A DNA stretch of 32,000 bases from Staphylothermus hellenicus DSM 12710 (GTDB taxonomy: Archaea; Thermoproteota; Thermoprotei_A; Sulfolobales; Desulfurococcaceae): positions 180,001 through 212,000 of the forward strand of contig NC_014205.1 in the NCBI RefSeq assembly GCF_000092465.1. The letters run 5' to 3'. Of the stretch, positions 1-28,464 are shown piece by piece. Positions within the stretch are counted from its first letter, which is position 1, and each line of letters opens with the position of its first letter. The notes beneath the pieces are model-generated. The model had not been told where the DNA came from. It saw only the letters and a program-made list of their open reading frames with translations, and searched no databases. The translations under genes and the position numbers were made by a program.

Positions 1-1272
1 ATTAAATAGCTTATAGAATTTATCAATACCCCATACAATTGTATGATAGGTGGATGAACAGTATGGCTCTATTGGCTCAGTTGGTAGGTCTGGGTCTTTC
101 CATATTTGTTTTAGTTTTTCTAGTGCTTTCCATAGTTTTTCTTGGTCTTCTTGTGTTGCCGGTGCGAATTCTATTTCTTTACCCCTAGTTTTTACCTTGA
201 CTAGTATTCTGGGTCTTGCAGGTGCTTTTTTGAGTTCTTCTAGGCTTGTTTCTCCGGACAAGTATTTTTCGAGGAGTGTGTTCCATTGTTTTAGAGCATA
301 TTTGGGGTAGAATATGACTTTTTTTCTGAGTGATGAGGGTAGGTTTGATTTTTCGGGATAGTGTTGTCCGGTTTCTGGGTTTATGTATCCTATTTTGTTT
401 TTGCAGTATAGGCATGTTGCTTTCTCTCTTCTCGCATCAATGTTTTTCTCTGGGACTTCGAGCTCTATGGTTTGTTTTCCTCTAGGTATGATTATTTTGT
501 TTGATTTAATCTTATCTTTGTCAAGGAAGGGGATTTTGTATTCTTTATTTATATCTACTACCTCAATATCTACTCTATCGTTTCTTTTCACTGGCTTCAT
601 ATAGGCTATTCTAGTATACTTATTATTTTTCTTCACTCTTGCCAGCCAATAGTTTCCTATTAGTGGTGTATATCTTTTACACCGGGGGCATTGAATCTCC
701 CATGTTCCTATGTATATTGCTGTATCCTCGTCGTATAGTTCTTTTAGATCCTGATCATTTTTTAATTGTTCAATAATCCATTTACCATATTTTTCCACAT
801 CTTTAACTAAATTTTTCCATTTAGGATCGCTAACTGCTTTTAGAGGATATTCTAGGACTGCTTTCAAGAATACGGCTGCTGTTGGTAATAGTTCTACTGC
901 TATTACTTTTCCCACGCCTAGTCTTAGTGCTTCTAGGGGTATTGAGCCGAAGCCAGCGAATGGATCTAGCAGACTTGTTTCTTTAAACAATTTCTTTAAA
1001 CCAGCTAGTTCTCCTTGAAAAACCGGGTTAAACCTGTGCGGTGTTTTCTTGTCTAGTCTTAGAATGTATTGTTTAAATGCTTCTGGATCGATCTTGTCTG
1101 CTGGTATTATTGATCCCGCTATTACTGCTCTTGCTGTTATTAATGGTTTACGTGTCCACCAGAAAACCATTTCCCAGTATGGGGGTCTGCCTGGTCCTTT
1201 TTCAGAGATGGCTTTTTCTGAGATCTCGATGCTTGGAAAGGATGGGGTCTCTATTAGTTTCTTTTCCAGAAT
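1..1272 (-). CDS. DUF1156/COG1743-type DNA methyltransferase with Zn-ribbon, N-terminal ~424 codons. The 3' part runs off the left window edge.
   Basis: The minus-strand frame is open from 1275 down to 1 (checked codon by codon). It is absent from the ORF track because no stop lies inside the window. The translation reads ..KKLIETPSFPSIEISEKAISEKGPGRPPYWEMVFWWTRKPLITARAVIAG.. (DUF1156-like N-terminus), LLDPFAGFGSIPLEALRLG (SAM-binding motif I) and CPRC...CLYC (Zn ribbon). There is no in-frame ATG before ~1170, so the start is uncertain. Confidence 0.75.
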   Translation of the reverse strand, partial: MLEKKLIETPSFPSIEISEKAISEKGPGRPPYWEMVFWWTRKPLITARAVIAGSIIPADKIDPEAFKQYILRLDKKTPHRFNPVFQGELAGLKKLFKETSLLDPFAGFGSIPLEALRLGVGKVIAVELLPTAAVFLKAVLEYPLKAVSDPKWKNLVKDVEKYGKWIIEQLKNDQDLKELYDEDTAIYIGTWEIQCPRCKRYTPLIGNYWLARVKKNNKYTRIAYMKPVKRNDRVDIEVVDINKEYKIPFLDKDKIKSNKIIIPRGKQTIELEVPEKNIDARREKATCLYCKNKIGYINPETGQHYPEKSNLPSSLRKKVIFYPKYALKQWNTLLEKYLSGETSLEELKKAPARPRILVKVKTRGKEIEFAPATQEDQEKLWKALEKLKQIWKDPDLPTEPIEPYCSSTYHTIVWGIDKFYKLFN

Positions 1273-1364: not shown

Positions 1365-2423
1365 GTGTTCTTTGGTGATCCTGTTTTGGATCCGTGGAAA
1401 AATATGCCTGTTCACAGAATATTTTCGTTTGTAGAGCATGGTTTATTGCCTGGTATTGTTGACGAGTTTTTCGTTCTAGCTGAGGAGATTGGTTGTAGCC
1501 TAATAGTTGATCCCTTTATTGGTGGAGGAGTTGTTACTGCTGAAAGTATTCGTAGAGGCTTCAAAAGAGAAGATATTGGCTAGATTCCTAGAAATACTTT
1601 AGGAAACAACTAAGCCATATATTCCTACACTGAGAGGCTGAAAAAAATATTATGTTCCAGAACACTTGGAAAAATAGGATTGATTAGGGCAGTAGTTGAG
1701 AATATAAAAGGTGATCTCAAATCATTACTGCTAACGGTGCTTGGGAGAATAGCTGATGAATATTCCCTTCTCAAAAGAACCCCTGCTCCAAGATTTAAGG
1801 GGGAGCCTCCTAGAAGTGATCCTGTAGAAAAATATGTTGAGATACTAGAAGAAGCTCTAAATGATCTAACCAAGGCTGAACCCAGGGGTTCAGCTATATT
1901 ATTACTAGCTGATTCTACCGAATGGCTTCCCGAACACATATGTGGATTACTAACCAGCCCCCCATTCGCAAACAATATTGACTATATAAGGCATACACAG
2001 CTACAACTGCTTTGGAGTGGTTTAGCACTTAATAGTGAAGACCTAGGTTATTGGAGAAACCTACAACTACCAGGATGCGAAGCAGCCTCTAGGGCATGGA
2101 AGAAGATTAATAATGATACAGCAGTTAATGAATTAATCAATAATATGACTCCAAAATATAGGAAAAGATATGGTCGCTTCCTCAAACAATACTTCTACTA
2201 TATGCAGAAACACATAAACCTATTAGCAGAGAAACTAGAAGGAACTGCATGGTATACTATTGGAGACAGCTACTTAGGAGGAGTATATGTTCCAACACAC
2301 TTATTCCTCCAAAGATATGCTGAGAAAAACGGGTTAAAGACTAGGATAAGGAGGATCAAGGATAGGCATTCAAGAAGTAAAAAGCTAGGATTATATTTAT
2401 TAGAAATAATGAATAAGCGATGA
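1365..2423 (+). pseudogene. N6-adenine/N4-cytosine DNA methyltransferase interrupted by two in-frame stop codons
   Basis: ORFs 1365-1583 and 1680-2423 are in the same frame. They are separated by TAG (1581-1583) and TAA (1611-1613). Motif I, IVDPFIGGGVVTAE, lies in the first part. Motif IV, LLTSPPFANNIDY, lies in the second part. Confidence 0.65.
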
Positions 2424-2445: not shown

Positions 2446-4053
2446 TTAAACTATTCTGAAAGACTTACTTATAACATTGCCATTCTCTTTAAGCAACTCA
2501 ATGCCCTCTATTGTTTTCTCAATAGACTCGCCTGCAATTCTATACTGATAAATATATTTGCCCTTAATCTTAGCATGGTGTGCTGAACGCTTGAGCTTGT
2601 CTGTATTTCCTATTATTATCATTAATAATCTATGCCTGCTTAACTGCACGTTTAAAACTTGGTGTTCATTAAAATACATTGTTTCAGGCCTGATAGTGGC
2701 AAATGAATAATATGAGAAATCGTTCCGGGCCAACCATTCCTTACCAAGCATAGTCACTATAACATCGTCTTCACCTCCAATTATTGATTGGACAGTTGCA
2801 TATCTGAGATGATCAGTATCTATACCAGCTTCTACTAGTTTTTTCTTCAAATAATATCCCGTACTATAAGCTAGATCACTATATGGAGCTGTTAAGCTTA
2901 CTCCAAAAGCAGGCCTACCACCACGTAGCATTATAGATATTATTGAGAGATAAAGACCCGTTAAATAGCCTAGATATGCTCTGCTTCTATGATAAGTATC
3001 TCCAGACGGGAATTTTCTCGTTTTAAAAACAATTAATGGTATACCATTTGTTAATGCCTTATCAATTGCTTCAACAACGAGTTTAACACTGGATTTTGAA
3101 AGATCCAGTATTTTTCCCATTATTGTTTTAGATTTATTTAGAACATCCTCTAAGCCGCCGGCCAATAATTTATTGTATCTTACTTTAAAATGTTCTTTTG
3201 CTTTGAGTTTTCCTTCATAAAAACCTCTGCTTATCGGTGTTTCAGTAGGCCCTGGTAATCTAAAGGTGGTGTCGAGAAACTTATAGTATTCTTCTAAATT
3301 ACGTCTTTCAAGTATTCTTTTAATATAATCCATTAATAATGGTATACGGAATGTTTTAAATTCTGTTGAAATAGAGATTGCTTGTTGAGGATCTCCAAGA
3401 ACAATCATTGATTTGGGATATGCTTCCTCAGGATTCCTAATAATGCTTCTAGCTATTGGTAGGAAAACTCTGAAGAAGGGGGTTTTGCTAGCTTCGTCTA
3501 CAATAAATCTTATTTCATCAGGCTTTTCAACTAGTTTCGGAGATATTCTCTGATACTCTGTTGCGAATACGAATCTAACATTTCTAGGATCAATACTTTT
3601 CATTAGCTTTTTGATCTTGTCACATGGTAGAATTTTATTATCTATCGATATACCCATAGATCCCTTTCTGCATGGTTCAATTTTTGATCCATAAACACGT
3701 ATTAGATCAAGTATTACATTAACATCGTAGCCCTTATAAAACAGGTTCGCAACAAATCTTGTAAAAGCTTCGATAACAAGATGATTTGTTGGAGCAATGT
3801 ATAGATAAAGAATTTTCCCCTTATAACCTAGAATTTCATCTAGTATTCCTCTAGTGCCTAAATCGAAAACACTAGTCTTACCTGTTCCCGGGGGACCTTG
3901 AACAGCGCCTAATCCTATGTAGCCCTTAGCTACTTTCTCGAATAACTTGATTGCTTCAATCTGAGATCCTTCAGCATATCTCTCTATACAGCTCCTATTA
4001 TGTGAGCACTCATAAGCCTTACGAAGTGAATCAGATAAATAATACATTACCAT
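2446..4053 (-). CDS. Superfamily 1B (Upf1/Dna2-like, AAA_11/AAA_12-type) helicase
   Basis: 535 aa. Motifs: I GPPGTGKT, Ia APTNHLV, II IVDEASK, III LGDPQQ, V TVQSIIGGEDDVIV, VI LNVQLSRHRLLMIIIGN. The start overlaps the stop of the upstream nuclease gene by 7 nt. Confidence 0.8.
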   Translation of the reverse strand: MVMYYLSDSLRKAYECSHNRSCIERYAEGSQIEAIKLFEKVAKGYIGLGAVQGPPGTGKTSVFDLGTRGILDEILGYKGKILYLYIAPTNHLVIEAFTRFVANLFYKGYDVNVILDLIRVYGSKIEPCRKGSMGISIDNKILPCDKIKKLMKSIDPRNVRFVFATEYQRISPKLVEKPDEIRFIVDEASKTPFFRVFLPIARSIIRNPEEAYPKSMIVLGDPQQAISISTEFKTFRIPLLMDYIKRILERRNLEEYYKFLDTTFRLPGPTETPISRGFYEGKLKAKEHFKVRYNKLLAGGLEDVLNKSKTIMGKILDLSKSSVKLVVEAIDKALTNGIPLIVFKTRKFPSGDTYHRSRAYLGYLTGLYLSIISIMLRGGRPAFGVSLTAPYSDLAYSTGYYLKKKLVEAGIDTDHLRYATVQSIIGGEDDVIVTMLGKEWLARNDFSYYSFATIRPETMYFNEHQVLNVQLSRHRLLMIIIGNTDKLKRSAHHAKIKGKYIYQYRIAGESIEKTIEGIELLKENGNVISKSFRIV

Positions 4054-5840
4054 GACTCATTCTCCCCTTTTAATAAGCCTTCAGTAAACAAGACACTGAA
4101 CATTGCTTCTTTGTATTCTTTACGAATCTTTTTCGTAGTTTTAGCTAGTATCTTGAGTTTATCGTTTCTTTTAGCGATTCCGCGGCTGCCGCGGTGGAAT
4201 GCGTCGATTGCTTGTAGTTCTAGCTGGGTTAGATCAACGTTTATCTCGACCCCTATTATTTTCTCGAGATACTGGAGATTATGGGATACAGTTCTTCTCA
4301 GTATTTCAAGTTGCAGTCTTGATGGAATATTTGGGGCTGCGACGTGAACATATATTTTATCGCCTTTCCTTGAAGGCTTTATCTCTATTTCTTCGACTCT
4401 ACCATGGAAACTTAGCCTTAGAAGAGGATTATTCACGTATGGATCATTAAATATTATTAGAACAGGTTTTCCCTCTCTCAACGTTTTAAGCTTGATTGGT
4501 TCTATGGATTGCTCATATTCTCTAACTTGTCTCTCCAAGATTATTTCGTAGGATTCACTTAATGATGCTTTTTCAAAGTAATCTATGCGGTTCCCGCTTT
4601 CGCCTAGTGTATTTTCCCGCCTAACTATTGCTTCGATGAGTTTTTCTATATTATTATTGTTTGCAATGTATAGATTGTATAGTTCTTTTATGGGTTTCTG
4701 AGCATTCTCCCTAATCTTATATACAGCATGTCTAGCTCTATAGGCTAGTCTATCTAGAAGTGTCCAGTCTTTATATGTTTTCGTATAGAATTCACATGCT
4801 TCTCTATACATACATATTCTGCAGGGATACTTGTTTCCATATTTAACGGGATTACTTCGTGGCAGGTCTTTTGGCGCTCTGCGAAAAGCAGATATTTTCT
4901 GTCCATGTAATCCTTTTATGCTGCAGATTTTAGCAGTATTATTATCTACATAATCTTTATACTCTGTTATTGTTAAAACTAAGTGTTCTGCAGATAATAG
5001 TATGTTTCTAATTAGTTCATATTTATTAATGGTTTTACCAGCTGTTCTATAGGTATCAGCTATGCTGTATACCTTAATGTTTCCAGTGGGTCTTATCACT
5101 ATTGGGACAACGTCTTCTCTATCTCTAACAGCTCCAACAGGATCATCGTATCCAAGTCTTTCAGCCTCCATTAAAGCATAGGTATAAGCTTGTGCGATCT
5201 CCCAGTTTTCCGGGGTTCTCCCTGTTTTCCACTCAATGACTAGAGCTTTTCTAGAAATGGGATCTTCTATGACTGCATCAATTATTCCTACAATATGAAA
5301 CCTATAACTATACATAAATAGCTCTGTAAATAATCTAAGGCTCCCCTCATTCAACCCCATTTTATTTATGAATATAGGCATTACTCTAGATAAGCTATTG
5401 ATCATGTTAACAGCGTACATAATAGATTCATTAACTAATTTACTTCCCGACTCCTCAACAGCCTCCTTATTCAATATTCCAGCTTCTACTAAATCATTAT
5501 ATGCATTCCTAACATATGATTCAATAGTTGAATATGGTAGCCTCCCCTTAACGAAATCAACTCTATTCAGACCATAGAATATCTGCGGTAAAGCTACAGC
5601 TAGTAATTGATGAGTTAATCTCCCCCTCCCAGGTATTATGGATACAAAATCAGTTACTGCACCAATAGCCTCAGCTAAACGAGCCGCATAAATACAGAAA
5701 GCAGCGCCTCGAGCAACATTACTAGCTCTAACCAGATGAGATGTACCCGATAAAATCTTTTGCACTCCAATACCACAAAGTTCTTGACCAGTTAAATCAA
5801 CAATATATTTTTCAATAACCAAAACACTCCTACCCTTCAA
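4047..5840 (-). CDS. Cas4/RecB-family PD-(D/E)xK nuclease with Fe-S cysteine set and a ~250-aa C-terminal extension of unknown function
   Basis: 597 aa with a TTG start. It has an N-terminal Cys (TGQELCGIG), the catalytic GIIDAV..LVIEWKTGR, QxxxY (IAQAYTYAL) and CX2CX5C (CRICMYREAC). Residues ~350-597 carry no motif I can name. Confidence 0.75.
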   Translation of the reverse strand: MKGRSVLVIEKYIVDLTGQELCGIGVQKILSGTSHLVRASNVARGAAFCIYAARLAEAIGAVTDFVSIIPGRGRLTHQLLAVALPQIFYGLNRVDFVKGRLPYSTIESYVRNAYNDLVEAGILNKEAVEESGSKLVNESIMYAVNMINSLSRVMPIFINKMGLNEGSLRLFTELFMYSYRFHIVGIIDAVIEDPISRKALVIEWKTGRTPENWEIAQAYTYALMEAERLGYDDPVGAVRDREDVVPIVIRPTGNIKVYSIADTYRTAGKTINKYELIRNILLSAEHLVLTITEYKDYVDNNTAKICSIKGLHGQKISAFRRAPKDLPRSNPVKYGNKYPCRICMYREACEFYTKTYKDWTLLDRLAYRARHAVYKIRENAQKPIKELYNLYIANNNNIEKLIEAIVRRENTLGESGNRIDYFEKASLSESYEIILERQVREYEQSIEPIKLKTLREGKPVLIIFNDPYVNNPLLRLSFHGRVEEIEIKPSRKGDKIYVHVAAPNIPSRLQLEILRRTVSHNLQYLEKIIGVEINVDLTQLELQAIDAFHRGSRGIAKRNDKLKILAKTTKKIRKEYKEAMFSVLFTEGLLKGENESW

Positions 5841-6052
5841 CTCCTACAAATATTTTCACTGTAAAAAAACACTTATAAAAATGTATAAGCAAATGATAAA
5901 CCATAGAAATGTTAAAATTAAATCATATAAATATTAATTCATTAAACCTATGCTAATTCTTAAGCATTTAACTATGTTAATTCTACTTTTTATATTTAGA
6001 ATTATAATTATTGATATGATTTAAACGCATATATTTATGTGGAGGAAGAAAT

Positions 6053-7566: not shown

Positions 7567-8010
7567 AAACTTCTACTCTATAATATAGGATTAAATTTAT
7601 GTAATATAAATATAAGCATGTTACATACTGCATAATTAGGATCTCTAAATATTATCCATGCTTTTCAATATTAGCCTGTTCTTAATTAATGATAATACGT
7701 GGCCTTGTTCGATAAATAATAATATAATATATGTATATGGTGTAGATTAGGAGCCGCGTGTTTGAATCGTTCTCTAATCCTCCTCATGGCTGATTTCTTT
7801 TATCGAGAAATTCTGGGTGTTTTGAATTATATGAGACTTAACAATAAATGTTTACTAGGTAAGGGATTTAATTGTCTATGAGATCATTAAAACTAGTTAA
7901 TTAAAGTAAAGGTTTTAAGATTTGTTTACTGCTAATTATTTATAGAGAATAGGGTGGTTTAGAGAAACATTTTATATATGGAATAATGTTCATAGGAGGT
8001 GTTTTTCTCC

Positions 8011-8541
8011 ATGGATAGGAGAGATGTTTTATTGAATATTATCATGTATTTTAACAAGATCTATAAAAAGCCTCTTGATGGTAGGAAGAAGCTGCAGAAG
8101 CTTTTATTCCTAGTTGAGCATCTAGATATTGAATCCGGTAAACTATCTAGATCAAGGGGTTTGACTGGTTATAAATTCATTGTTTACAGCTATGGTCCTT
8201 TCTCCAAAGATGTATACAGAGATCTCGAAAGCCTTGTTAAGGAGGGGATTGTGGAGGAGAGGATGGAGACTTGGAGACAGGAATCATTACTGTACACTTA
8301 CATCGATGACGGGAAGCCTCGGAGAATATATTATTATAGAATATTAGATGAGAATAGAGTTCCGAAACTACCCCGCGAAGTAGAGGATAAAATTAAATTA
8401 GTGATTGAAAAATATGGTTCGCTCCCACCTATGAAATTAGAATCACATGTTAATGAACTCCTAAAGCTTACTCCGAAGAAAAAAGTGGAATACTGGGGCG
8501 AATTCATCGATGATTACTTAGAGGAAGAAGGATTTGAATAG
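8011..8541 (+). CDS. Panacea/DUF4065 (SocA/GepA-like, COG3600) domain protein, putative antitoxin
   Basis: RKKLQKLLFLVEHL ... YSYGPFSKDVYRDL matches the remembered DUF4065 signature (KLQKLLY...GPV..vY). The ATG at 8011 is preceded by GGAGGTG. The track start at 7999 is a GTG. Confidence 0.65.
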   Translation: MDRRDVLLNIIMYFNKIYKKPLDGRKKLQKLLFLVEHLDIESGKLSRSRGLTGYKFIVYSYGPFSKDVYRDLESLVKEGIVEERMETWRQESLLYTYIDDGKPRRIYYYRILDENRVPKLPREVEDKIKLVIEKYGSLPPMKLESHVNELLKLTPKKKVEYWGEFIDDYLEEEGFE

Positions 8542-8841
8542 AATAGTTGCAACAAAGAGAAAGCCTATCAATGTATCGGAGAACCTTGCATTAAGACCAG
8601 CAACACAGAATCCAAAAATAATCGGAAAAATATACAAACAGCTGACTTCTTTAAATAATCAAAAAATGAATTCTTTCCTATATATTTCAAGTATAGATTT
8701 TTTTTTAGCGCTCCTAATGTATTAAAGCATGAAGTTAATAAACATGTAAAATCACTAAAGGGGGGATTAAACATTAATTCTAGGACGATTCGAAAATTGA
8801 CATCGGCTACTGGTTTATTTTCGCTCAATATTGCATACATT

Positions 8842-9270
8842 ATGGATGAACAAGATTATCCAGACTACATAAAACTGTATATTGAACCAGAAGTTATATT
8901 TGGTGGGTCTGCGAGACAATTAGATTACGCTATAGTAGATCAAAGAGATCCGGTTAATGTGTTAGTGCTTGCTGAGGTAAAGAGGATAATAACAACGCAT
9001 AACCTTAGTGATTATGTCCATAATAGTTTCAAGGTATTTAATGAGATCCTAAAAGAGTCTCAGAATTATTTCAGCGATAACAGGTTCCTAGTTTTGCATA
9101 TTCATTTAGCTCCTTGGTTTTCTGGCGAAACTGAACTGTATGAGGTATTAAAGGCTTTGGATGCAGTTTCTATCTTTGCCAATGTCAGTGTGATCGTTAG
9201 CAGGGGAGAAGATATAGATCGATTTGAAGAGGATTTAGCTCCCTTTCTAGAACAAATAATCCACAGCTAG
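8842..9270 (+). CDS. Hypothetical protein with a possible PD-(D/E)xK nuclease motif
   Basis: The ORF runs 8797-9270 and the first ATG is at 8842. The segment E(PE)...QLDYAIVDQRDPVNVLVLAEVKR fits a D-x(n)-E-x-K pattern on predicted beta strands. This is motif-level evidence only. Confidence 0.4.
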   Translation: MDEQDYPDYIKLYIEPEVIFGGSARQLDYAIVDQRDPVNVLVLAEVKRIITTHNLSDYVHNSFKVFNEILKESQNYFSDNRFLVLHIHLAPWFSGETELYEVLKALDAVSIFANVSVIVSRGEDIDRFEEDLAPFLEQIIHS

Positions 9271-9825: not shown

Positions 9826-9976
9826 TTTGGTTCGAATACGTTGTTACATTTATAGTTTTTGTTCGAAGTAGTATATATTATTTTCTCTATTTGATCCCAT
9901 GGTTGATCCTGTTCGACTAGTTTACTATATGTTAAACGGGTTTGTATAATGATAAATGTTCGACTAGTTTACTATA
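9826..9976 (-). promoter_or_regulatory. CRISPR leader copy A (remnant)
   Basis: It shares long identical runs with 14173-14345: tttggttcgaata, acatttatagttttt, gatcctgttcga and gggtttgtataatgataaatgttcgac. Confidence 0.65.
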
Positions 9977-10434: not shown

Positions 10435-10525
10435 GTAACAACACAAAAAGAATTGAAAGTGGTGTTTGCTAAATTAACGGTGTCCGAGAGGCCTCGCAGC
10501 GTAACAACACAGAAAGAATTGAAAG
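10435..10525 (+). CRISPR. CRISPR mini-array: 2 repeats, 1 spacer
   Basis: The repeats are GTAACAACACAAAAAGAATTGAAAG (10435-10459) and GTAACAACACAGAAAGAATTGAAAG (10501-10525). The 41-nt spacer lies at 10460-10500. The repeat 3' end ATTGAAAG is the typical archaeal crRNA 5' handle, which sets the orientation. Confidence 0.8.
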
Positions 10526-10579: not shown

Positions 10580-11596
10580 TTAAACATTTAGTTTCATGTA
10601 TGTGCTGTACTTGTATTTCCTATATTCTTTTTTGTCTATTGGTTTTCTTAGTATGAATAGTTTTTCATGATATATTAGTAGGAAGTCTTTGTTTTTCAGC
10701 TTTGACCATATTTCTCGTGTGGTCTTCATTTTGTGCTGTATTTTCACAACTTCTTCTTTAAGTATGAATCCTGTTTTTAGAAGGGTTTCTAGTACATGGT
10801 GGGTTATTGGGACGTAGTGTTTGTGGATCCTTGTGTCACCGATTAGGATCCCCAGGATTCTTCCTGGCTTAAGCACTCTGAAGGCTTCTTTTCCAACTTG
10901 TTGTATCATGGCTAAGTATTCTTCTAATCTCCTAGCTCCCGAGAGGTCTCCAGGGATCTTCTTGGTTCTGCTATACCTTATAATATTGTAGTATGGTGGG
11001 TGGGTAGCTACTAAGTCTATGCTGTTACTGCTTATCTTGTCCAGGTTCCGGGCATCTCCATGGTAGATTTCAACTCTAGCCTTGAGAATATCCTCAATGG
11101 ATACGGGAGAGTATTCTCCTCCAAATATTTCTTGGGTGGAGGCTTGTTTCTCCAAGTATTTCTCCAGCCAGTATAGTCTGTGGAGTGTTAGTATGACTGC
11201 GTTGTAGTTTATATCTACACCTATACAGTTCCTGCCCAGAAGCTTTGCTTCAATACATGTTGTACCACTACCAATCATTGGATCCAATACTGTTTCTCCA
11301 GGCATAGTATATGCAAGTATAAGTGCGCGAGCCATTTGAGGAGGCCAATTACCCCGATAATCCCCGCGGTGAGTGGCCCAAGAACCCCTCTTCGGAAAAC
11401 TCCAAACAGTAGTACTTATATCAGTTAATTCCTGTGGTAAAGGATATAAACGCTTCACACGTATAGGTTCCAAGCTAATCCTGTTCCCCTCAATCTCCAC
11501 CGCCCTATTATTCTTTAAGAACTCTAGGTAATCATCATAGGAAACCCTCCTCATACCAGCCACATTACTGTTTCTCTGCAACTTGCCTTTCTTCAT
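10580..11596 (-). CDS. Orphan N6/N4 DNA methyltransferase
   Basis: 338 aa. NWPPQMARALILAYTMPGETVLDPMIGSGTTCIEAKLLGRNCIGVDIN is motif I with the flanks typical of N6_N4_Mtase. It is followed ~90 aa later by IDLVATHPPYYNII (motif IV). No adjacent endonuclease is recognisable. Confidence 0.75.
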   Translation of the reverse strand: MKKGKLQRNSNVAGMRRVSYDDYLEFLKNNRAVEIEGNRISLEPIRVKRLYPLPQELTDISTTVWSFPKRGSWATHRGDYRGNWPPQMARALILAYTMPGETVLDPMIGSGTTCIEAKLLGRNCIGVDINYNAVILTLHRLYWLEKYLEKQASTQEIFGGEYSPVSIEDILKARVEIYHGDARNLDKISSNSIDLVATHPPYYNIIRYSRTKKIPGDLSGARRLEEYLAMIQQVGKEAFRVLKPGRILGILIGDTRIHKHYVPITHHVLETLLKTGFILKEEVVKIQHKMKTTREIWSKLKNKDFLLIYHEKLFILRKPIDKKEYRKYKYSTYMKLNV

Positions 11597-11813: not shown

Positions 11814-13757
11814 TTGTTTGGAATGAATAAAATACTTGCTCTACTATTCTTATCCATAATGATTCTCAGCATACCAGCTATAGTTCCAAATAATACAGTT
11901 GGCTCAGCAGGGGGAGAAATGGGGCCTTATTGGTTCAAGGACTATTATAATGTACCTGGCCATATTCTTGATCTCTACGACTTCGACACAGTTTTTGCTC
12001 CTAACGGGGACATCGTTGTTGCCGGTAATATTTATGGTTTTGGTGCTGGAGAAATTGATGCTTTGGTTATGAGGGTTAACAGGTGTGGTGAAATAGTATG
12101 GTATAAAAGCTATGGCGGGGTCGAAGACGATATTGTATCCTCTGCAATTATAGCTCCTAATGGAGACATAATAGTTGCTGGTTGGACCGGGAGCTTTATT
12201 GAGGATGGAGACTGGGATCTATGGATTCTCCGCCTAGACGGGAATGGAAGCATTGTTTGGGAGAAGGATTATGGTGGAAGCACTGATGATGGTGGCACAA
12301 AGGTTTCCCTAGCAATTGATCCATCATCTGGAGACATAGTTGTTGCTACATCAACTCTTCAAAGCGACAACTATGGTGGCTTGTGGAATAATATATGGCT
12401 TCTACGCCTGGATAAACACGGTAATGTTAAGTGGGAGAAAACATATGGTGTGGAATCAGATGAAGACTATGCTTTTGCAGTAAGTATCGCCCCTAACGGA
12501 GACATAGTTGTAGGTGGAGAAACAAGTGGATCTTATTGGGTAGGAGACAACATTGTCTCTGGTGCATGGGTGTTGAGACTTGACCCAAACGGGGATATTA
12601 TATGGCAGAAAGTCTATGAAACCCCTCAAGCTTATGAGGAAATCAGCGGGATCCTAGTATTGCCAAGTGGAGACATATTGGTTAGTGGTTCAAGTGGGAG
12701 TTTAAGCGAAGTAATGCATAGTTGGATCGCGTATCTAGATGGGGGAGGCAATGTTAAATGGTCGAAAACCTATATTCGAAGCATCGAGGAAGGAGGTTCA
12801 ATAAGTGAACCCGTCCTAGCCCCAAATGGTGACATTATAGGTAGAGACATCTATACTATAGCGGTATCCCAGGATGGAAGCTTGAAATGGGCTAAGTGGA
12901 TGATAGATGGGGCAATGGCTGGACCCATAATATCACCGGATGGAACAGCTGCAGTAGCTGGAATAGAAGCACATGGTTTCGCTATTGGGAGATTCAATAT
13001 AAGCAATGTACCAGAGTATTCTGGCTGGCAAAACCCAAACGATCCAGGCTGGGATGGATGGGGCAGTGTTGACCTAAAAGTTTACGATGCTGAACTAATT
13101 GTTACATCTTCAAATATTGCCCCAAACACACTGCCTGGTTCACCACGAAACATAAATGTTGAGATACATGAAGCAGAACATAATGCTATATCCAATATTA
13201 CATCTAATACTATATGGAGTGTATCATCCATATCAGAACCACAAAACCTCCAAGCAACAACTAATAACAATAATGTCGAGTTAACATGGGATCCACCAAT
13301 AGATAATGGTGGGTGCAGAATAGTAGAATATAGGATTTACCGTGGAACAAACAATAATAACCTAGAATATTATGCATCAGTAAATGGGTCAACAACAAGC
13401 TTCACAGATAAAAACACTGCTAATGGTCAAACCTATTATTACAGAGTAAGCGCTGTAAACAACATAGTTGAAGGACCAAAATCAAACATAGCAAGCGCTA
13501 CAACAACAAGTTCAACACCAAGCGAAACAACAAGCACAACACCCACAACAACCATAGGCACAACCACAACCACCACCAGTACAAGCACAAGCCACACACA
13601 AACAACCCCTCCACAAACCAGTACAGAAAAAACAAGCAATACACCAAGCGAAAACACAAGCCCCAACAATCAAGGATTCCCATACGAAACAGCAGCGATC
13701 ATAGCAGTAATCATAATTATCCCACTACTAGCATACACACTGATACGCTTAAAATAA
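11814..13757 (+). CDS. Secreted, membrane-anchored surface protein: ~7 beta-propeller-like repeats + fibronectin type III domain + Thr/Ser-rich stalk + C-terminal TM anchor
   Basis: It has an N-terminal signal/TM segment (NKILALLFLSIMILSIPAIV). A repeated module occurs about 7 times (APNGDI[IV]VAG ... W.K.YGG). The FN3-like segment is PQNLQATTNNNNVELTWDPP..YRIYRG..YYYRVSAVN. A TTTSSTPSETTSTTPTTT stalk is followed by the terminal AAIIAVIIIIPLLAYTLIRLK. The ATG at 11823 may be the real start. Confidence 0.75.
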   Translation: MFGMNKILALLFLSIMILSIPAIVPNNTVGSAGGEMGPYWFKDYYNVPGHILDLYDFDTVFAPNGDIVVAGNIYGFGAGEIDALVMRVNRCGEIVWYKSYGGVEDDIVSSAIIAPNGDIIVAGWTGSFIEDGDWDLWILRLDGNGSIVWEKDYGGSTDDGGTKVSLAIDPSSGDIVVATSTLQSDNYGGLWNNIWLLRLDKHGNVKWEKTYGVESDEDYAFAVSIAPNGDIVVGGETSGSYWVGDNIVSGAWVLRLDPNGDIIWQKVYETPQAYEEISGILVLPSGDILVSGSSGSLSEVMHSWIAYLDGGGNVKWSKTYIRSIEEGGSISEPVLAPNGDIIGRDIYTIAVSQDGSLKWAKWMIDGAMAGPIISPDGTAAVAGIEAHGFAIGRFNISNVPEYSGWQNPNDPGWDGWGSVDLKVYDAELIVTSSNIAPNTLPGSPRNINVEIHEAEHNAISNITSNTIWSVSSISEPQNLQATTNNNNVELTWDPPIDNGGCRIVEYRIYRGTNNNNLEYYASVNGSTTSFTDKNTANGQTYYYRVSAVNNIVEGPKSNIASATTTSSTPSETTSTTPTTTIGTTTTTTSTSTSHTQTTPPQTSTEKTSNTPSENTSPNNQGFPYETAAIIAVIIIIPLLAYTLIRLK

Positions 13758-26564: not shown

Positions 26565-27173
26565 ATGGAACGATTATATACGATGAAGGAAGCATCTAGG
26601 CTGCTGGGTGTTCATGTTAGGACTATTCAGAAGTGGGATAAGAAGGGGAAGATAAGATGTGTAAGGGCTCTTGGCGGGAAGAGAAGAGTACTAGAATCTG
26701 AGATAAAGAGGATTCTCGGAATTCATGGAGAAAGGAAGAATTATCGGATATGCAAGGGTCTCATCACATACACAAAAGGATGATTTAGAGAGACAAATTG
26801 AAGCAATAAGCAAGTATGCCGAGAAGAAGGGGTGGGATGTGAGGATCCTAAAAGATGTTGGATCAGGATTAAATGAAAACAGAAAAAACTTCCAGAAACT
26901 GCTCAAGATGGTAATGAATAGAGAAATCTCTAAGGTCATAGTAGCTTATCCAGATAGGTTGACAAGGTTTGGGTTCAAAACTCTGGAGGGGTTCTTTAAG
27001 AGCTATGGGACTGAAACAGTGGTGATAAATAAGGGGAAAAGTCGCCGAAAGAGGAGCTTGTCGAGGACTTGATCACAATAATCTCGTATTTTGCTGGAAA
27101 ACTGTACGGGATGAGATCTCACAAGTACAGGAAGGTGGTTGAGAATGCAAGGAAGCTCATTAGTGATCCGTGA
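26565..27173 (+). pseudogene. tnpA: IS607-type serine recombinase transposase with two frameshifts
   Basis: The HTH part ([27 protein letters not shown]) is in frame 0. The catalytic core ([26 protein letters not shown]) is in frame +1, starting at about 26707-26730. The C-terminal part ([28 protein letters not shown]) returns to frame 0 after about 27033-27045. Both switches occur at purine homopolymer tracts. Confidence 0.8.
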
Positions 27174-28464
27174 AGATGTGAGGATGTATTCTGTTGATTT
27201 CAGCGATGAAAGGATCAGGGAGCTTATCACATGGTACGTAAAGTCGTTGCAGAGAGCAATAGATGAGATTTGGGAGAACATGGAGTGGAAATATGACTTC
27301 AAGAGAAGATATGCAAAGGTCCGAATACCCGTAATTCCTAGGAATAAAGAATTCAAGAAATATCTGAGAGACAAGCTGATGAAGGATAATCCATACACTA
27401 AACACTGGGTTGATGCTGTGATAAGGACAGCATACAGTATCATGGAGAATTGGAGGAAAAGATACGTCAAAGGAATGGCTAGGAAGAAAAAGCCTACGGT
27501 GAAGAGAAGATTTGCTAGGTGCAAGATAACATTGATGAAGGTTGATTACTCAAGAAAAACCATAAGGATAACGTTGAAGCCGTATGAGTATATTGAGGTA
27601 AGCTATGCTAATCAATGGTTTAGTAAGAGAATAGATGAGTGGAAAGTTGGGGGAGTTGTACTGAAGGATGATAGAGTATTAATACCGTTCAAAAAGGAGA
27701 ATACATACAGAGTTAACCGTGAGATTGCATGGGACTGTAATGAAAAAACTATCGATGGCTTCTCTCCTCAGATGGGTTTTGTCCAGGTTGATCTGAGGAA
27801 GTTAATTACTGCTAGGATAAGGTATCAGGAGAAGAGATCGAGGATCCAGTCATTGATGAAGAGAAAACCTAAAAGTGCTAGGAAACTCTGGGAGAAGTAT
27901 AGCAGAAGAGAGAGGAATGTCTGCAGGGATATTGAGAGGAAGATTGCAATAGAAATTGTAAATGCATTCCCAAACACTCTACACATCTTTGAGAAGTTAA
28001 ATAAGCAGAAAATGATAAGCAAAAGGAAAAACAAAAACAAGAATCTTAGGAAGAGGGTAGCAAGAATAAGCTGGATCAATATAATTAGAGAAGTTGAGAT
28101 GAGAGCTCCTGTTAAAAAGGTTGATCCATATTTTACATCAAAGACCTGCCCCCTATGCGGGTATGTGAATAAAGACCTGAGGGGGCAGGTTTTCGAGTGT
28201 CCGAGATGCGGGTGGAGAATTGATAGGCAGAAGAATGCAAGCATAAACATCTATCTCAAGATGAAGGGTTTTCCTCCCTCCCCAAACACCTTCTACAGAG
28301 TGGTGACAAAAAGAATGATCCACTCTGGGAAGGTGTGGATGAGGAGGGGGAGTGGGGTTACCCAGATCGGGGGCGAGACCAATGAAATGCTCCCCAATGA
28401 AAGGGGAGACGAGGCCGGTGTGCCCCAAAGCCTACATAGGCAAATCAAAGCCTATGTAGGCTGA
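27139..28464 (+). CDS. tnpB: TnpB (OrfB) RNA-guided endonuclease-family protein
   Basis: 441-aa intact ORF with the C-terminal Zn finger [23 protein letters not shown] followed by [10 protein letters not shown] (the RuvC-III region). The start overlaps the tnpA 3' end. The true start may be a downstream Met (MYSVDF). Confidence 0.85.
28270..28464 (+). ncRNA. Candidate TnpB omega-RNA (reRNA) scaffold overlapping the tnpB 3' end
   Basis: There are nested hairpins: CACCTTC 28287-28293 pairs with GAAGGTG 28329-28335, and CAGAGTGG 28296-28303 pairs with CCACTCTG 28320-28327. CTCCCC 28390-28395 pairs with GGGGAG 28403-28408. A perfect 12-bp hairpin runs 28430-28461. The position matches where omega-RNAs are known to be encoded. 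Confidence 0.4.

Follow-up and report, generated by a model that had tools for sequence, protein, structure and literature searches.

Several described systems join a nuclease to a DNA helicase. In eukaryotes, Dna2 carries in one polypeptide an Fe-S PD-(D/E)xK nuclease, a beta-barrel on a two-helix stalk and the Upf1-like SF1B helicase domains 1A and 2A, and it is a universal housekeeping enzyme; the stalk/beta-barrel arrangement of Dna2 and Upf1 has been described (PMC4716839). Nhi of staphylococci is an antiviral defence protein made up of a nuclease and an SF1 helicase resembling Upf1. The UvrD-Cas4-like fusion proteins, in which a PF12705 Cas4-like Fe-S nuclease is linked to an SF1 helicase, occur in contexts associated with restriction-modification (RM) and adjoin type III RM or Dcm genes (Hudaiberdiev et al. 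2017; PMC5704561). Type I and type III (Res/Mod) RM systems consist of an ATP-dependent motor, a PD-(D/E)xK nuclease and a separately encoded methyltransferase, and in BREX type 4 (BrxP) and Dnd/Ssp an enzyme of the DndC/PAPS-reductase family is the presumed self-marking component. The DUF499-centred BREX-related (BR) systems, called Hma, follow an RM-like logic with a helicase-nuclease effector (PMC12839542). Here we compare with these systems a nuclease-helicase gene pair found in a window of 32,000 nucleotides (the whole stretch of DNA that was analysed) from the archaeon Staphylothermus hellenicus (Desulfurococcales).

Predicted architecture of the nuclease and the helicase

Two open reading frames were read in the sequence at the coordinates given by the initial annotation, both on the minus strand and overlapping by 7 nt. 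The nuclease subunit (4047..5840, 597 aa, TTG start) appears, from its motifs and its predicted structure, to be an Fe-S-cluster PD-(D/E)xK enzyme that continues into a stalk of two helices and a beta-barrel. The motifs that had been named for it all fall in invariant or near-invariant columns of an 18-sequence family alignment (C22, D188, (E/D)203-W204-K205, Q217, Y221, C340, C343 and C349), and the same alignment holds two further invariant cysteines, C49 and C306, that had gone unmentioned. A 572-aa gene call (P0001) was rejected in favor of the 597-aa frame because it would drop the invariant C22. This residue lies in an N-terminal helical region (residues ~1-160), which is followed by the PD-(D/E)xK core with the C-terminal CX2CX5C (residues ~165-350). 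Of particular concern were residues 350-597, where a Dna2-like barrel and stalk had been suspected. The last ~250 aa are indeed modelled as stalk helix, beta-barrel and stalk helix (361-558; helices at 361-393 and 538-558, barrel at 418-532) ahead of a low-confidence tail (561-597), and the secondary structure of 361-558 fits the arrangement described for Dna2 and Upf1. The AlphaFold model (pLDDT 83, pTM 0.86) has Dna2 (5EAX) as its best solved-structure match in Foldseek (E 2.4e-7, ~595 columns), followed by AddB, SETX/Aquarius and Cas4, in that order.

The helicase subunit (2446..4053, minus strand, 535 aa), 100% identical to a hypothetical protein of S. hellenicus, is predicted to be an SF1B enzyme of the Upf1/Dna2-like type that consists of the RecA-like domains 1A and 2A only, without a stalk or barrel of its own. 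The SF1B motifs listed for it in the initial annotation are invariant in a 41-sequence alignment, which comprises the Walker A motif G53-P-x-G-x-x-K59-T60, APTN at 87-90, D186-E187, G220-D221-x-x-Q224, R265, G426/E428 and N468-V-Q-x-S-R473. A helicase profile searched against PDB sequences matches Upf1/Nam7/Sen1/IGHMBP2, and the predicted structure (pLDDT 91.5) has three Dna2 entries, 5EAN, 5EAW and 5EAX, as its best three Foldseek matches (E 5.9e-17 to 5.3e-15).

With Dna2 as the top solved-structure match of both proteins, the proposal of a split Dna2-like module holds: sequence and models together indicate the domain order of Dna2 in two polypeptides, cut exactly at the stalk/1A junction. 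No helicase fusion was found among the ~100 nuclease family representatives. The profile scores of the window proteins themselves are weak (nuclease, 23.2 bits for PF12705 with a cut-off of 22 and 2.5e-6 for the Cas4-like nuclease model of PADLOC; helicase, 24.2 for AAA_11 and 23.1 for AAA_12, both under the cut-off of 27), whereas orthologues clear the profile cut-offs. The label "Cas4-family" proved too specific for the nuclease: the cas4 equivalog TIGR00372 gives it 20 bits where the cut-off is 65, and Cas4 structures come far behind Dna2 and AddB among its matches. The label "Nhi-like" is apt as an architectural analogy but not as a statement of family relation, as the PADLOC Nhi model (E <= 0.1) matches neither the nuclease nor the helicase of the window; the helicase of a distant family member matches it weakly (1.1e-6).

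Gene junction, upstream region and selection

The nuclease stop codon (TAA) and the helicase start codon (ATG) overlap at 4047..4053 on the minus strand, where ...GGGGAG AAT GAG TCA TGG TAA overlaps ATG GTA ATG. The 7-nt overlap, together with the Shine-Dalgarno-like GGGGAG 11-16 nt upstream of the helicase ATG, implies that translation of the two genes would be coupled, and overlapping or near-abutting junctions are seen again in orthologous loci. Upstream of the nuclease, a putative promoter and 5' region of the operon (5841..5881, minus strand) may be read from the sequence: TTTTTATAAG, a putative archaeal TATA-like element, precedes the TTG start by about 32-41 nt, and GGAG stands directly 5' of this codon. 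A bacterial sigma-70 scan (14 sites versus 16.1 expected) is uninformative. The dN/dS ratio against an 87-88% identical relative is 0.14 for the nuclease and for the helicase, and both are therefore real genes under purifying selection.

Neighbours in the window

Two methyltransferase genes had been reported on one side of the pair. Both are present: a pseudogene and a gene of the HmaB/DUF1156 type. Translation, tblastn and family conservation point to the pseudogene (1365..2423, plus strand) as the cognate DNA methyltransferase of the pair. It retains motif I (DPFIGGG) and motif IV (TSPPF) and aligns over its full length, through the stops, with four intact orthologues (39-43% identity, tblastn), but it carries in-frame stops at 1581-1583 (TAG) and 1611-1613 (TAA) and a ~23-codon deletion that removes the family-conserved G-x-D-x-NPW block. 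An independent assembly, built from a different sequencing run, has the same sequence. The second gene (1..1257, minus strand) is the 5' part of an HmaB-type DUF1156 DNA methyltransferase, open to the window edge, with 422 codons without a stop, an uncertain exact start codon and 34% identity to the HmaB of locus L003 (E 2e-28, tblastn). The complete gene, which runs past the window, has 1003 aa and precedes a gene for a 1139-aa DUF499 HmaC ATPase (L102); HmaB/HmaC orthologues were assigned by PADLOC. Elsewhere in the window, what had been called an orphan CRISPR remnant consists of two repeats of 25 nt (10435-10525), and the "TA-like" gene encodes a SocA/Panacea-domain protein.

Distribution and association with modification genes

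The nuclease family is rare, with about 100 cluster representatives among 1.84 billion and 7 loci among 185,579 species representatives, and in two lineages (L015/L020) it lies within a clean insertion bounded by EF-1alpha and RNA polymerase genes. This agrees with the patchy, accessory distribution that had been proposed. The expected co-occurrence of the two genes was also found: after de-replication at 95%, 65 of 67 loci have the helicase next to the nuclease, the remaining 2 being truncated contigs, and the two genes co-evolve, their distance matrices correlating with r = 0.979. The pair is strictly co-inherited.

The earlier view of the pair as a functional unit among unrelated neighbours did not survive the comparison. 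Among the 58 loci informative for a modification gene, 57 carry one alongside and 1 has neither type; the partner is a DndC-like PAPS reductase in 38 and a ~370-aa DNA methyltransferase in 19, and none has both, such that the two are mutually exclusive. The loci come mostly from related hot-environment archaeal metagenomes and part of the conserved linkage reflects shared descent, a concern eased by the 95% de-replication and by protein identities of 25-49%. The linkage of the triad outlasts changes of gene order: the modification gene is variously upstream, downstream, co-directional or convergent to the pair, and in the Pyrobaculum loci L018/L097 the helicase comes first. The methyltransferase-type triads form a single clade in both trees; this version arose once. 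By their motifs, the methyltransferase partner is predicted to be a DNA methyltransferase of the alpha type, its motif IV being TSPPF (DPFxGxG, GxDxNPW and TSPPFxNNxDY are retained in the family) and the alternative partner a DndC-like PP-loop ATPase, with an SGGKDS PP-loop, conserved Cys and matches to DndC (8.7e-34) and BrxP (8.6e-15). Across loci, the neighbours of the pair include HmaB/HmaC, GmrSD, OLD-type ATPases and type IIG RM. The pair fits none of the PADLOC system models, in agreement with the first impression that it belongs to no named defence system.

Proposed function and rival explanations

Taken together, we think it probable that the pair is the restriction (effector) half of an undescribed three-component, RM-like archaeal defence system. 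The two subunits would form a cylinder like that of Dna2, through which single-stranded DNA would be threaded from an end or nick; the complex would move 5'->3' and destroy invading DNA. The partner enzyme would mark host DNA, by methylation or by a phosphorothioate-type or other DndC-dependent mark, and so allow it to escape attack. No domain that could read a sequence is recognisable in the effector, and target recognition is therefore probably a further task of the modification enzyme, in the manner of type I/III RM and BREX. In type I/III RM, restriction depends on the modification subunit, and the dependence proposed here is modelled on those systems; it would explain why an intact nuclease-helicase is tolerated beside a dead methyltransferase in S. 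hellenicus. Intact effector genes beside a dead methyltransferase fit poorly with a classical autonomous restriction enzyme, and the RM-like reading therefore needs either methyltransferase-dependent restriction or a silent system; that of S. hellenicus is probably inactive or decaying. We know of no established chemistry for a lone DndC homologue without DndA/D/E, and this weighs against the RM-like reading, as do the need of a Dna2-type tunnel for a free ssDNA end (PMC4716839) and the difficulty of seeing how such an enzyme would read a modification state. BREX types 1 and 4 offer a parallel to the two kinds of partner: there, too, a methyltransferase and a PAPS-reductase-type enzyme replace one another (PMC12839542).

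The HmaB and HmaC genes raise the possibility, which we regard as doubtful, that in the methyltransferase clade the pair serves a DUF499/DUF1156 (Hma, "BREX-related") system as its effector, replacing the Swi2/Snf2 helicase-REase HmaA in a unit of HmaC, HmaB, nuclease, helicase and small methyltransferase. HmaB/HmaC (DUF1156/DUF499) are directly adjacent in 13 of the 19 methyltransferase-type groups, the window's own genome included; a Snf2-sized gene (HmaA) is absent where flanks are long (L003/L021, L005, L015/L020 and L102), and the L015/L020 insertion between housekeeping genes is exactly the Hma plus triad block. Canonical systems require a helicase-nuclease effector (PMC12839542), HmaA by itself gives defence (PMC11232893), HmaBC without any effector would be odd, and an intact HmaB could account for loss of the small methyltransferase. 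However, the triad is found without Hma in L027, L033, L035 and all 38 DndC-type groups, and the placement of HmaBC relative to it varies (upstream and divergent, downstream, or 2 kb away). Because Hma loci are known insertion hotspots for unrelated defence cassettes, 62.7% of them with embedded genes (bioRxiv 10.1101/2024.01.29.577857; PMC11232893), adjacency to Hma alone is weak evidence.

It is improbable that the pair works on its own, independently of modification, as an Nhi-type immunity enzyme that attacks viral replication intermediates or linear genome ends, with the modification genes belonging to other systems of the island. The resemblance to nuclease plus Upf1-like helicase immunity proteins, including the distant Nhi match, would fit this, as would the action of Dna2-type enzymes on free ssDNA ends without sequence recognition (PMC4716839) and the intactness of the pair despite the dead methyltransferase; yet one of two specific modification-gene families accompanies the pair through several gene orders and at protein identities of 25-49%, the single methyltransferase-type clade in both trees is not expected of chance neighbours, and the Nhi model fails on the window proteins. 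We give very little weight to the idea that the pair belongs to an integrated plasmid or virus and serves its replication, recombination or anti-restriction. The patchy insertion of the pair into conserved chromosomal regions, the proximity of some loci to TnpB genes and an integrase, and the abundance of Cas4-like nucleases in viruses (PMC5704561) point in that direction, but there are no matches among 72,556 plasmid and 50,697 phage records, viral structure matches are limited to the bare nuclease domain (E ~2e-4, TMq 0.25), the L015/L020 insertion holds no integrase, replication or structural genes, and the neighbours are defence genes rather than mobile-element backbones. A merely split housekeeping Dna2 orthologue, serving end resection or Okazaki-flap processing, is scarcely tenable and is largely refuted by distribution. 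Dna2 is the best structural match of both subunits, but universal orthologues syntenic with replication or repair genes, which the initial annotation would have taken as a sign of such a role, were not what was found: the family is rare and accessory, the pair lies in a variable island tied to modification and defence genes rather than replication genes, and the OB or Rpa-binding region of Dna2 is missing.

Comparison with known systems

The RM-like system proposed here differs from each of its closest counterparts. Unlike Dna2, with which the proteins share about 12-16% sequence identity, it is made of two polypeptides, has no N-terminal OB or Rpa-binding region, and is rare, accessory and tied to DNA-modification genes. 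With AddB and Cas4, the nuclease shares its D...(D/E)xK...QxxxY active site and a four-cysteine cluster by which the N-terminal and C-terminal extensions are stapled together, but Cas4 is a ~200-aa stand-alone adaptation nuclease, whose equivalog model the window nuclease fails. Nhi is a single bacterial protein without an associated modification gene, and the UvrD-Cas4-like fusions are single chains with an SF1A UvrD-type (3'-5') helicase and without stalk or barrel, found in bacteria and mesophilic archaea as ancillaries to complete RM systems (PMC5704561). The canonical Hma/BR effector is a Swi2/Snf2 helicase with a REase or HKD nuclease, and no such effector is present here. PglZ, BrxC, BrxL, DndA/D/E and SspABC genes are absent from triad loci, and the effector is unrelated to DndFGH or SspE. 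In comparison with type I/III RM, the motor is SF1B (Upf1/Dna2-like) rather than SF2, the nuclease is of the Fe-S Cas4/AddB/Dna2 class and forms a separate subunit with stalk and barrel, and a DndC-like PP-loop ATPase can take the place of the methyltransferase.

RESULTS

Two overlapping genes encode a predicted Fe-S nuclease and a predicted SF1B helicase

The nuclease ORF (4047-5840, minus strand) encodes 597 amino acids from a TTG start and is followed on the same strand by the 535-amino-acid helicase ORF (2446-4053). The 7-nt overlap reported in the initial annotation can be read directly at the junction (GGGGAG AAT GAG TCA TGG TAA in one frame, ATG GTA ATG in the other), and a Shine-Dalgarno-like motif precedes it. 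A shorter call of the nuclease gene (P0001, 572 amino acids) was rejected because it would delete the invariant C22. Against an 87-88% identical relative, dN/dS was 0.14 for the nuclease and for the helicase. The TATA-like sequence TTTTTATAAG, which precedes the nuclease start by approximately 35 nt, is a putative TATA element of this gene. A promoter/terminator scan with bacterial models says little about an archaeal host; it gave 14 sites versus 16.1 expected.

Among 18 aligned nuclease homologs, C22, D188, (E/D)203-W-K205, Q217, Y221, C340, C343, and C349 are invariant or near-invariant, and these columns are the Fe-S nuclease motifs that the initial annotation had picked out. The C-terminal 250 residues are conserved as strongly as the nuclease core, and the S. 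hellenicus nuclease and helicase keep every invariant residue. Profile matches of the two proteins are weak, though they agree with one another. PF12705 (PDDEXK_1) passes as a borderline case, with 23.2 bits versus a gathering threshold of 22 over residues 172-349, and a precomputed match to it is present in most homologs. The cas4 equivalog model TIGR00372 (NCBIfam) fails, reaching 20 bits versus a cutoff of 65 over residues 177-229 only. Cas4 models of PADLOC gave values of 1.3e-4 to 0.09, and the PADLOC model of an Argonaute-associated Cas4-like nuclease matched at 2.5e-6. The predicted four-Cys Fe-S cluster with its D...(D/E)xK...QxxxY site is common to AddB and Dna2, and is therefore not specific to Cas4.

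All SF1 motifs of the helicase (I, Ia, II, III, V, and VI, within two RecA-like domains) are invariant in an alignment of 41 sequences, in agreement with the SF1B motifs originally noted. The protein shows 100% identity to an S. hellenicus hypothetical protein, which places the host in the Desulfurococcales and not in the Sulfolobales. AAA_11 and AAA_12 fall just under threshold for the S. hellenicus protein and over it for orthologs. Among PADLOC models, MkoA matches the helicase at 8e-10, and the HmaA models (Swi2/Snf2 helicase-nuclease) do not match it. A sequence profile searched against PDB sequences retrieved Upf1, Nam7, Sen1, and IGHMBP2; by sequence and model, the protein is a predicted helicase of the Upf1-like branch of SF1B.

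Structure predictions point to complementary parts of Dna2

The predicted structure of the nuclease is confident (pLDDT 83, pTM 0.86). It begins with a helical region bearing C22, which leads into the nuclease core and a Cys-rich extension. Residues 350-597, to which the initial annotation could assign no motif, are modeled as a stalk helix of 33 residues (361-393), a beta-barrel (strands 418-532), and a second long stalk helix (538-558). In a Foldseek search of the PDB, mouse Dna2 (5EAX) ranked at the top (E = 2.4e-7, approximately 595 aligned columns), followed by AddB, then by SETX and Aquarius in their stalk/barrel regions, and then by Cas4. With Cas4 ranked below both Dna2 and AddB, and with the shortfall against TIGR00372, the assignment to the Cas4 family is too narrow. 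The Dna2 likeness was revealed by fold comparison only, as the nuclease-family sequence profile found nothing meaningful among PDB sequences (best E = 0.22).

For the helicase (pLDDT 91.5), the top three Foldseek matches in the PDB were all Dna2 (E = 5.9e-17 to 5.3e-15) with IGHMBP2 and Upf1 behind, the three proteins together spanning 1e-17 to 1e-12. From the models, we infer that the two proteins cover complementary parts of Dna2.

The gene pair is inherited with a DNA modification gene

In the first homologs found, the nuclease gene was always followed by the helicase gene and then by a convergent gene recognized weakly as an N6/N4-type DNA methyltransferase. In a distant subfamily, this place is taken by a PAPS-reductase-domain protein that matches DndC (8.7e-34) and BrxP. 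We gathered 102 loci, mapped their components by tblastn, and de-replicated them at 95% nucleotide identity into 67 groups. The helicase gene adjoins the nuclease gene in 65/67 groups, the other two ending within 140 bp, and the co-occurrence of the two genes is thereby borne out. A DndC-like partner is present in 38/67 groups and a methyltransferase partner in 19/67, the two being found together in 0/67; nine groups are too short to judge. A modification gene thus accompanies the pair in 57 of the 58 informative de-replicated loci, the one group with neither partner (L096) having flanks of approximately 1.8-2.5 kb. Convergent unannotated genes of approximately 355 amino acids in L096 and in another locus, L038, were considered as a third kind of modification gene and rejected, as they show no relationship to one another or to the methyltransferase and DndC profiles.

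The linkage of the triad is kept despite changes in gene order and orientation: the modification gene lies upstream or downstream of the pair on either strand, and in Pyrobaculum the helicase gene comes first. DndC-like partners have an invariant SGGKDS PP-loop and conserved Cys residues, and methyltransferase partners retain DPFxGxG, GxDxNPW, and TSPPFxNNxDY. SPPF is the form of motif IV typical of N4-cytosine methyltransferases. In neighbor-joining trees of both the nuclease and the helicase, loci with a methyltransferase partner group into one pure clade (18/18) nested among DndC-type lineages, and the distance matrices of the two proteins correlate with an r of 0.979. The two proteins therefore co-evolve strictly, with a single exchange of the modification gene. 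These loci are biased toward hot-environment metagenomes, and absences from our scan of species-representative genomes should be read with care, as it missed S. hellenicus despite the ExNVDLTQLE pattern in the window.

Some loci carry further genes. Seven DndC-type groups (Thermoproteales-like; L016, L018, L063, L068, L083, L088, L094, and L097) have the triad surrounded by four additional conserved genes, encoding proteins of approximately 530 and 375 amino acids without a Pfam match, a Methyltransf_11 protein of approximately 385-430 amino acids, and a protein of approximately 170 amino acids, which suggests a more elaborate modification pathway. In one MAG, a second, canonical AAA_11/AAA_12 SF1 helicase (L001:2539-4329, minus strand; 596 amino acids; 141 and 169 bits) lies upstream of the triad in divergent orientation; at such scores, it is unrelated to the triad helicase family. 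Two TnpB genes (Cas12f1-like TNB domain) are found directly upstream of the pair in another locus (L087:188-2400).

The methyltransferase partner in S. hellenicus is a pseudogene

The initial annotation placed two methyltransferase genes on one side of the pair. The one at the window edge is HmaB, a DUF1156 methyltransferase. The other, the triad methyltransferase copy (1365-2423, plus strand), aligns end to end with intact orthologs at 39-43% identity, but contains in-frame TAG (1581) and TAA (1611) codons, and a deletion of approximately 23 codons has taken the conserved GxDxNPW block with it. Over 6 kb, a second assembly, based on another sequencing run, shows 100% identity; together with the deletion of the conserved block, this rules out sequencing error and identifies 1365-2423 as a genuine pseudogene. 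A restriction enzyme that acts autonomously could not persist once its methylase is lost, and the intact pair beside a dead methylase therefore leaves three simplest reconciliations. Restriction may require the methyltransferase for target recognition, by analogy with type I/III restriction-modification (RM) systems and BREX; HmaB may be standing in for the lost methylase; or the nuclease-helicase operon may be silent. The system in S. hellenicus has probably been crippled through loss of the methyltransferase.

HmaB and HmaC accompany many methyltransferase-type loci

The DUF1156 and DUF499 genes that adjoin the triad match, in orthologs, the PADLOC models of HmaB (7e-58) and HmaC (1.5e-65), the latter a DUF499 ATPase. 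They are found in 13/19 methyltransferase-type groups and in 0/38 DndC-type groups. The window begins inside HmaB (5' part of the gene). The independent S. hellenicus assembly (L102) gives the order nuclease, helicase, split methyltransferase, HmaB (1,003 amino acids), HmaC (1,139 amino acids), a 147-amino-acid gene, and an AAA_5 ATPase. Past HmaC in this assembly (L102:15150-17412), the 147-amino-acid gene, the 568-amino-acid AAA_5 ATPase, and a 447-amino-acid gene may be a McrBC-like module that extends the island beyond the window start.

The canonical effector of Hma, a BREX-related (BR) system, is the Swi2/Snf2 helicase-nuclease (PMC12839542), which alone gives defense (PMC11232893). No locus with long flanks has a Snf2-type gene (neither this nor any other large gene occurs in the flanks of L003/L021, L005, L015/L020, and L102), and in MAGs of Aeropyrum and Acidilobaceae the block of five genes is a bounded insertion that separates the EF-1alpha gene from RNA polymerase genes. 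These findings suggest that the Dna2-like pair may replace HmaA. However, unrelated defense cassettes are known to be embedded in Hma loci, which are hotspots for them (10.1101/2024.01.29.577857), and L027, L033, L035, and all loci of the DndC type have the triad without Hma; we therefore rank the replacement of HmaA as a rival to, or an extension of, the reading of the triad as a system in itself, which we retain as the main one. The two large genes flanking the triad in L027 were considered as divergent HmaB and HmaC; one proved to encode an Lhr-like helicase, the other an Eco57I-like enzyme.

Other features of the island

Cas genes are absent from the window and from all of the approximately 100 loci, and the pair indeed lies away from cas1/cas2. 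The CRISPR remnants reported near it come down to two 25-nt CRISPR-like repeats, GTAACAACACA(A/G)AAAGAATTGAAAG, at 10435-10525 with a 66-nt spacing, which are a one-spacer CRISPR remnant 4.6 kb from the nuclease gene and the only CRISPR-like feature in the window. Intergenic sequence at 9910-9976 has two exact direct copies of the 20-nt TGTTCGACTAGTTTACTATA, 47 nt apart. An intact stand-alone DNA methyltransferase (10580-11596, minus strand; PF01555, 1e-27; PADLOC MTase_II, 5e-55), in which motif I precedes an HPPY-type motif IV and which no nuclease adjoins, might in principle share in the marking of host DNA. A SocA/Panacea-domain protein (7999-8541, plus strand; PF13274, 3e-9; PADLOC candidate PDC-M19A, 2.9e-10) and the unannotated 157-amino-acid gene after it (8797-9270, plus strand) may form a toxin-antitoxin or candidate defense pair. 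The edge of the accessory region is marked by a secreted 647-amino-acid protein (11814-13757, plus strand) with repeated APNGDIVVAG-type beta-propeller units, a region resembling fibronectin, a stalk rich in Thr and Ser, and a membrane anchor at its C terminus. Housekeeping genes of pyrimidine biosynthesis start at approximately 16.2 kb, and a TnpB gene (Cas12f1-like TNB domain) is found at 27139-28464 (plus strand).

DISCUSSION

We consider it rather probable that the nuclease-helicase pair is an RM-like defense effector acting with a modification partner. This reading builds on what sequences and models show: catalytic and Fe-S cluster residues, helicase motifs, predicted Dna2-like folds, translational coupling, and co-inheritance with a modification gene. 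The two proteins would assemble into a putative Dna2-like cylinder that loads onto single-stranded ends or nicks of invading DNA, translocates in a putative 5'-to-3' direction, and degrades that DNA, while the methyltransferase or DndC-like enzyme would mark host DNA and probably provide specificity as well. A broader claim, that the pair is the effector of a new archaeal restriction class in which a Dna2-type, ssDNA-threading Fe-S heterodimer is licensed or directed by interchangeable marking enzymes, and in one clade of which it displaced HmaA to give a fourth, HmaA-less BR subtype, seems to us doubtful. Such a class would also be a prokaryotic defense-system relative of the eukaryotic Dna2 architecture.

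Outside CRISPR and classical RM, little of archaeal immunity has been charted. If our reading is true, it adds a defined archaeal system of three genes, or five with HmaB and HmaC, found so far only in archaea that are mostly thermophilic (Desulfurococcales, Thermoproteales, Acidilobales, Thermoplasmatales, and Bathyarchaeota). A Dna2-like requirement for free ssDNA ends, combined with DNA marks, poses the mechanistic question of how modification state is read. The clean swap of methyltransferase and DndC-like enzymes is a natural experiment on the modularity of self-marking, parallel to BREX, and the HmaA-less association with HmaBC suggests effector exchange in DUF499 systems. In the pair, it is the nuclease gene and not the motor gene that encodes the stalk and barrel, a point that bears on how Dna2 was assembled in evolution.

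The closest architecture is that of Dna2, in which the N- and C-terminal extensions of the nuclease domain are stapled by the Fe-S cluster, followed by a beta-barrel on a stalk that two long helices form and then by the Upf1-like SF1B domains 1A and 2A; ssDNA is threaded through a tunnel and a free end is required (PMC4716839). In the models, the pair has the same order (Fe-S nuclease, barrel with two-helix stalk, and SF1B 1A/2A) and would therefore reproduce Dna2 cut at the stalk/1A junction. Dna2 is a single polypeptide, whereas the pair consists of two ORFs in 65/65 loci that have both, and no fused form occurs among the approximately 100 family representatives (550-736 amino acids) recovered when 1.84 billion proteins were searched exhaustively with a profile. 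The stalk and barrel of Upf1-like helicases are part of the helicase chain, but here they are on the nuclease chain, which suggests that the pair was derived by fission of a Dna2-like ancestor. Dna2 is a conserved housekeeping enzyme that acts with RPA, whereas the pair is rare, patchy, and located in variable defense-type islands, which speaks against a housekeeping role, and neither an OB fold nor an Rpa-binding N terminus was found in the nuclease model. Searches of plasmid (72,556 records) and phage (50,697 records) collections were without a match, and in a library of viral structures the matches were confined to the nuclease domain; on these grounds we rate the reading of the pair as a mobile-element module lower.

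The description "split Dna2/Nhi-like" thus stands in its Dna2 part, with Dna2 the top Foldseek match for both proteins. Its Nhi part is an analogy only: Nhi is a single-chain nuclease-helicase, the pair has two chains, and the PADLOC Nhi model (PDLC02372) matched neither S. hellenicus protein at E <= 0.1. The helicase of one locus (L008) gave a partial Nhi match (1.1e-6). The pair was also said to resemble no named archaeal defense system, and the proteins of the window match no PADLOC system model. A phylogenomic survey of Cas4 describes UvrD-Cas4 fusions adjoining type III RM or Dcm genes and Cas4-like genes linked to YprA, and does not describe the present module (PMC5704561). A survey of BREX and BR systems gives PD-(D/E)xK auxiliaries and no Cas4- or Dna2-type effector, both terms having zero occurrences; a "DNA2-like helicase/nuclease fusion" is mentioned solely as accompanying BRIGADE type I. 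Full-text searches of a collection of open-access papers gave no account of the triad. With Hma/BR systems, the present locus has HmaB and HmaC in common, whereas HmaA (Swi2/Snf2 with a REase or HKD domain) is missing. With RM systems in general, it shares, on sequence grounds, the generic feature of a putative nuclease effector whose gene is linked to that of a DNA-modifying enzyme. The triad is not Cas4, Nhi, or Dna2 proper, nor is it categorically new; we class it as a predicted RM-like defense with a helicase-nuclease effector.
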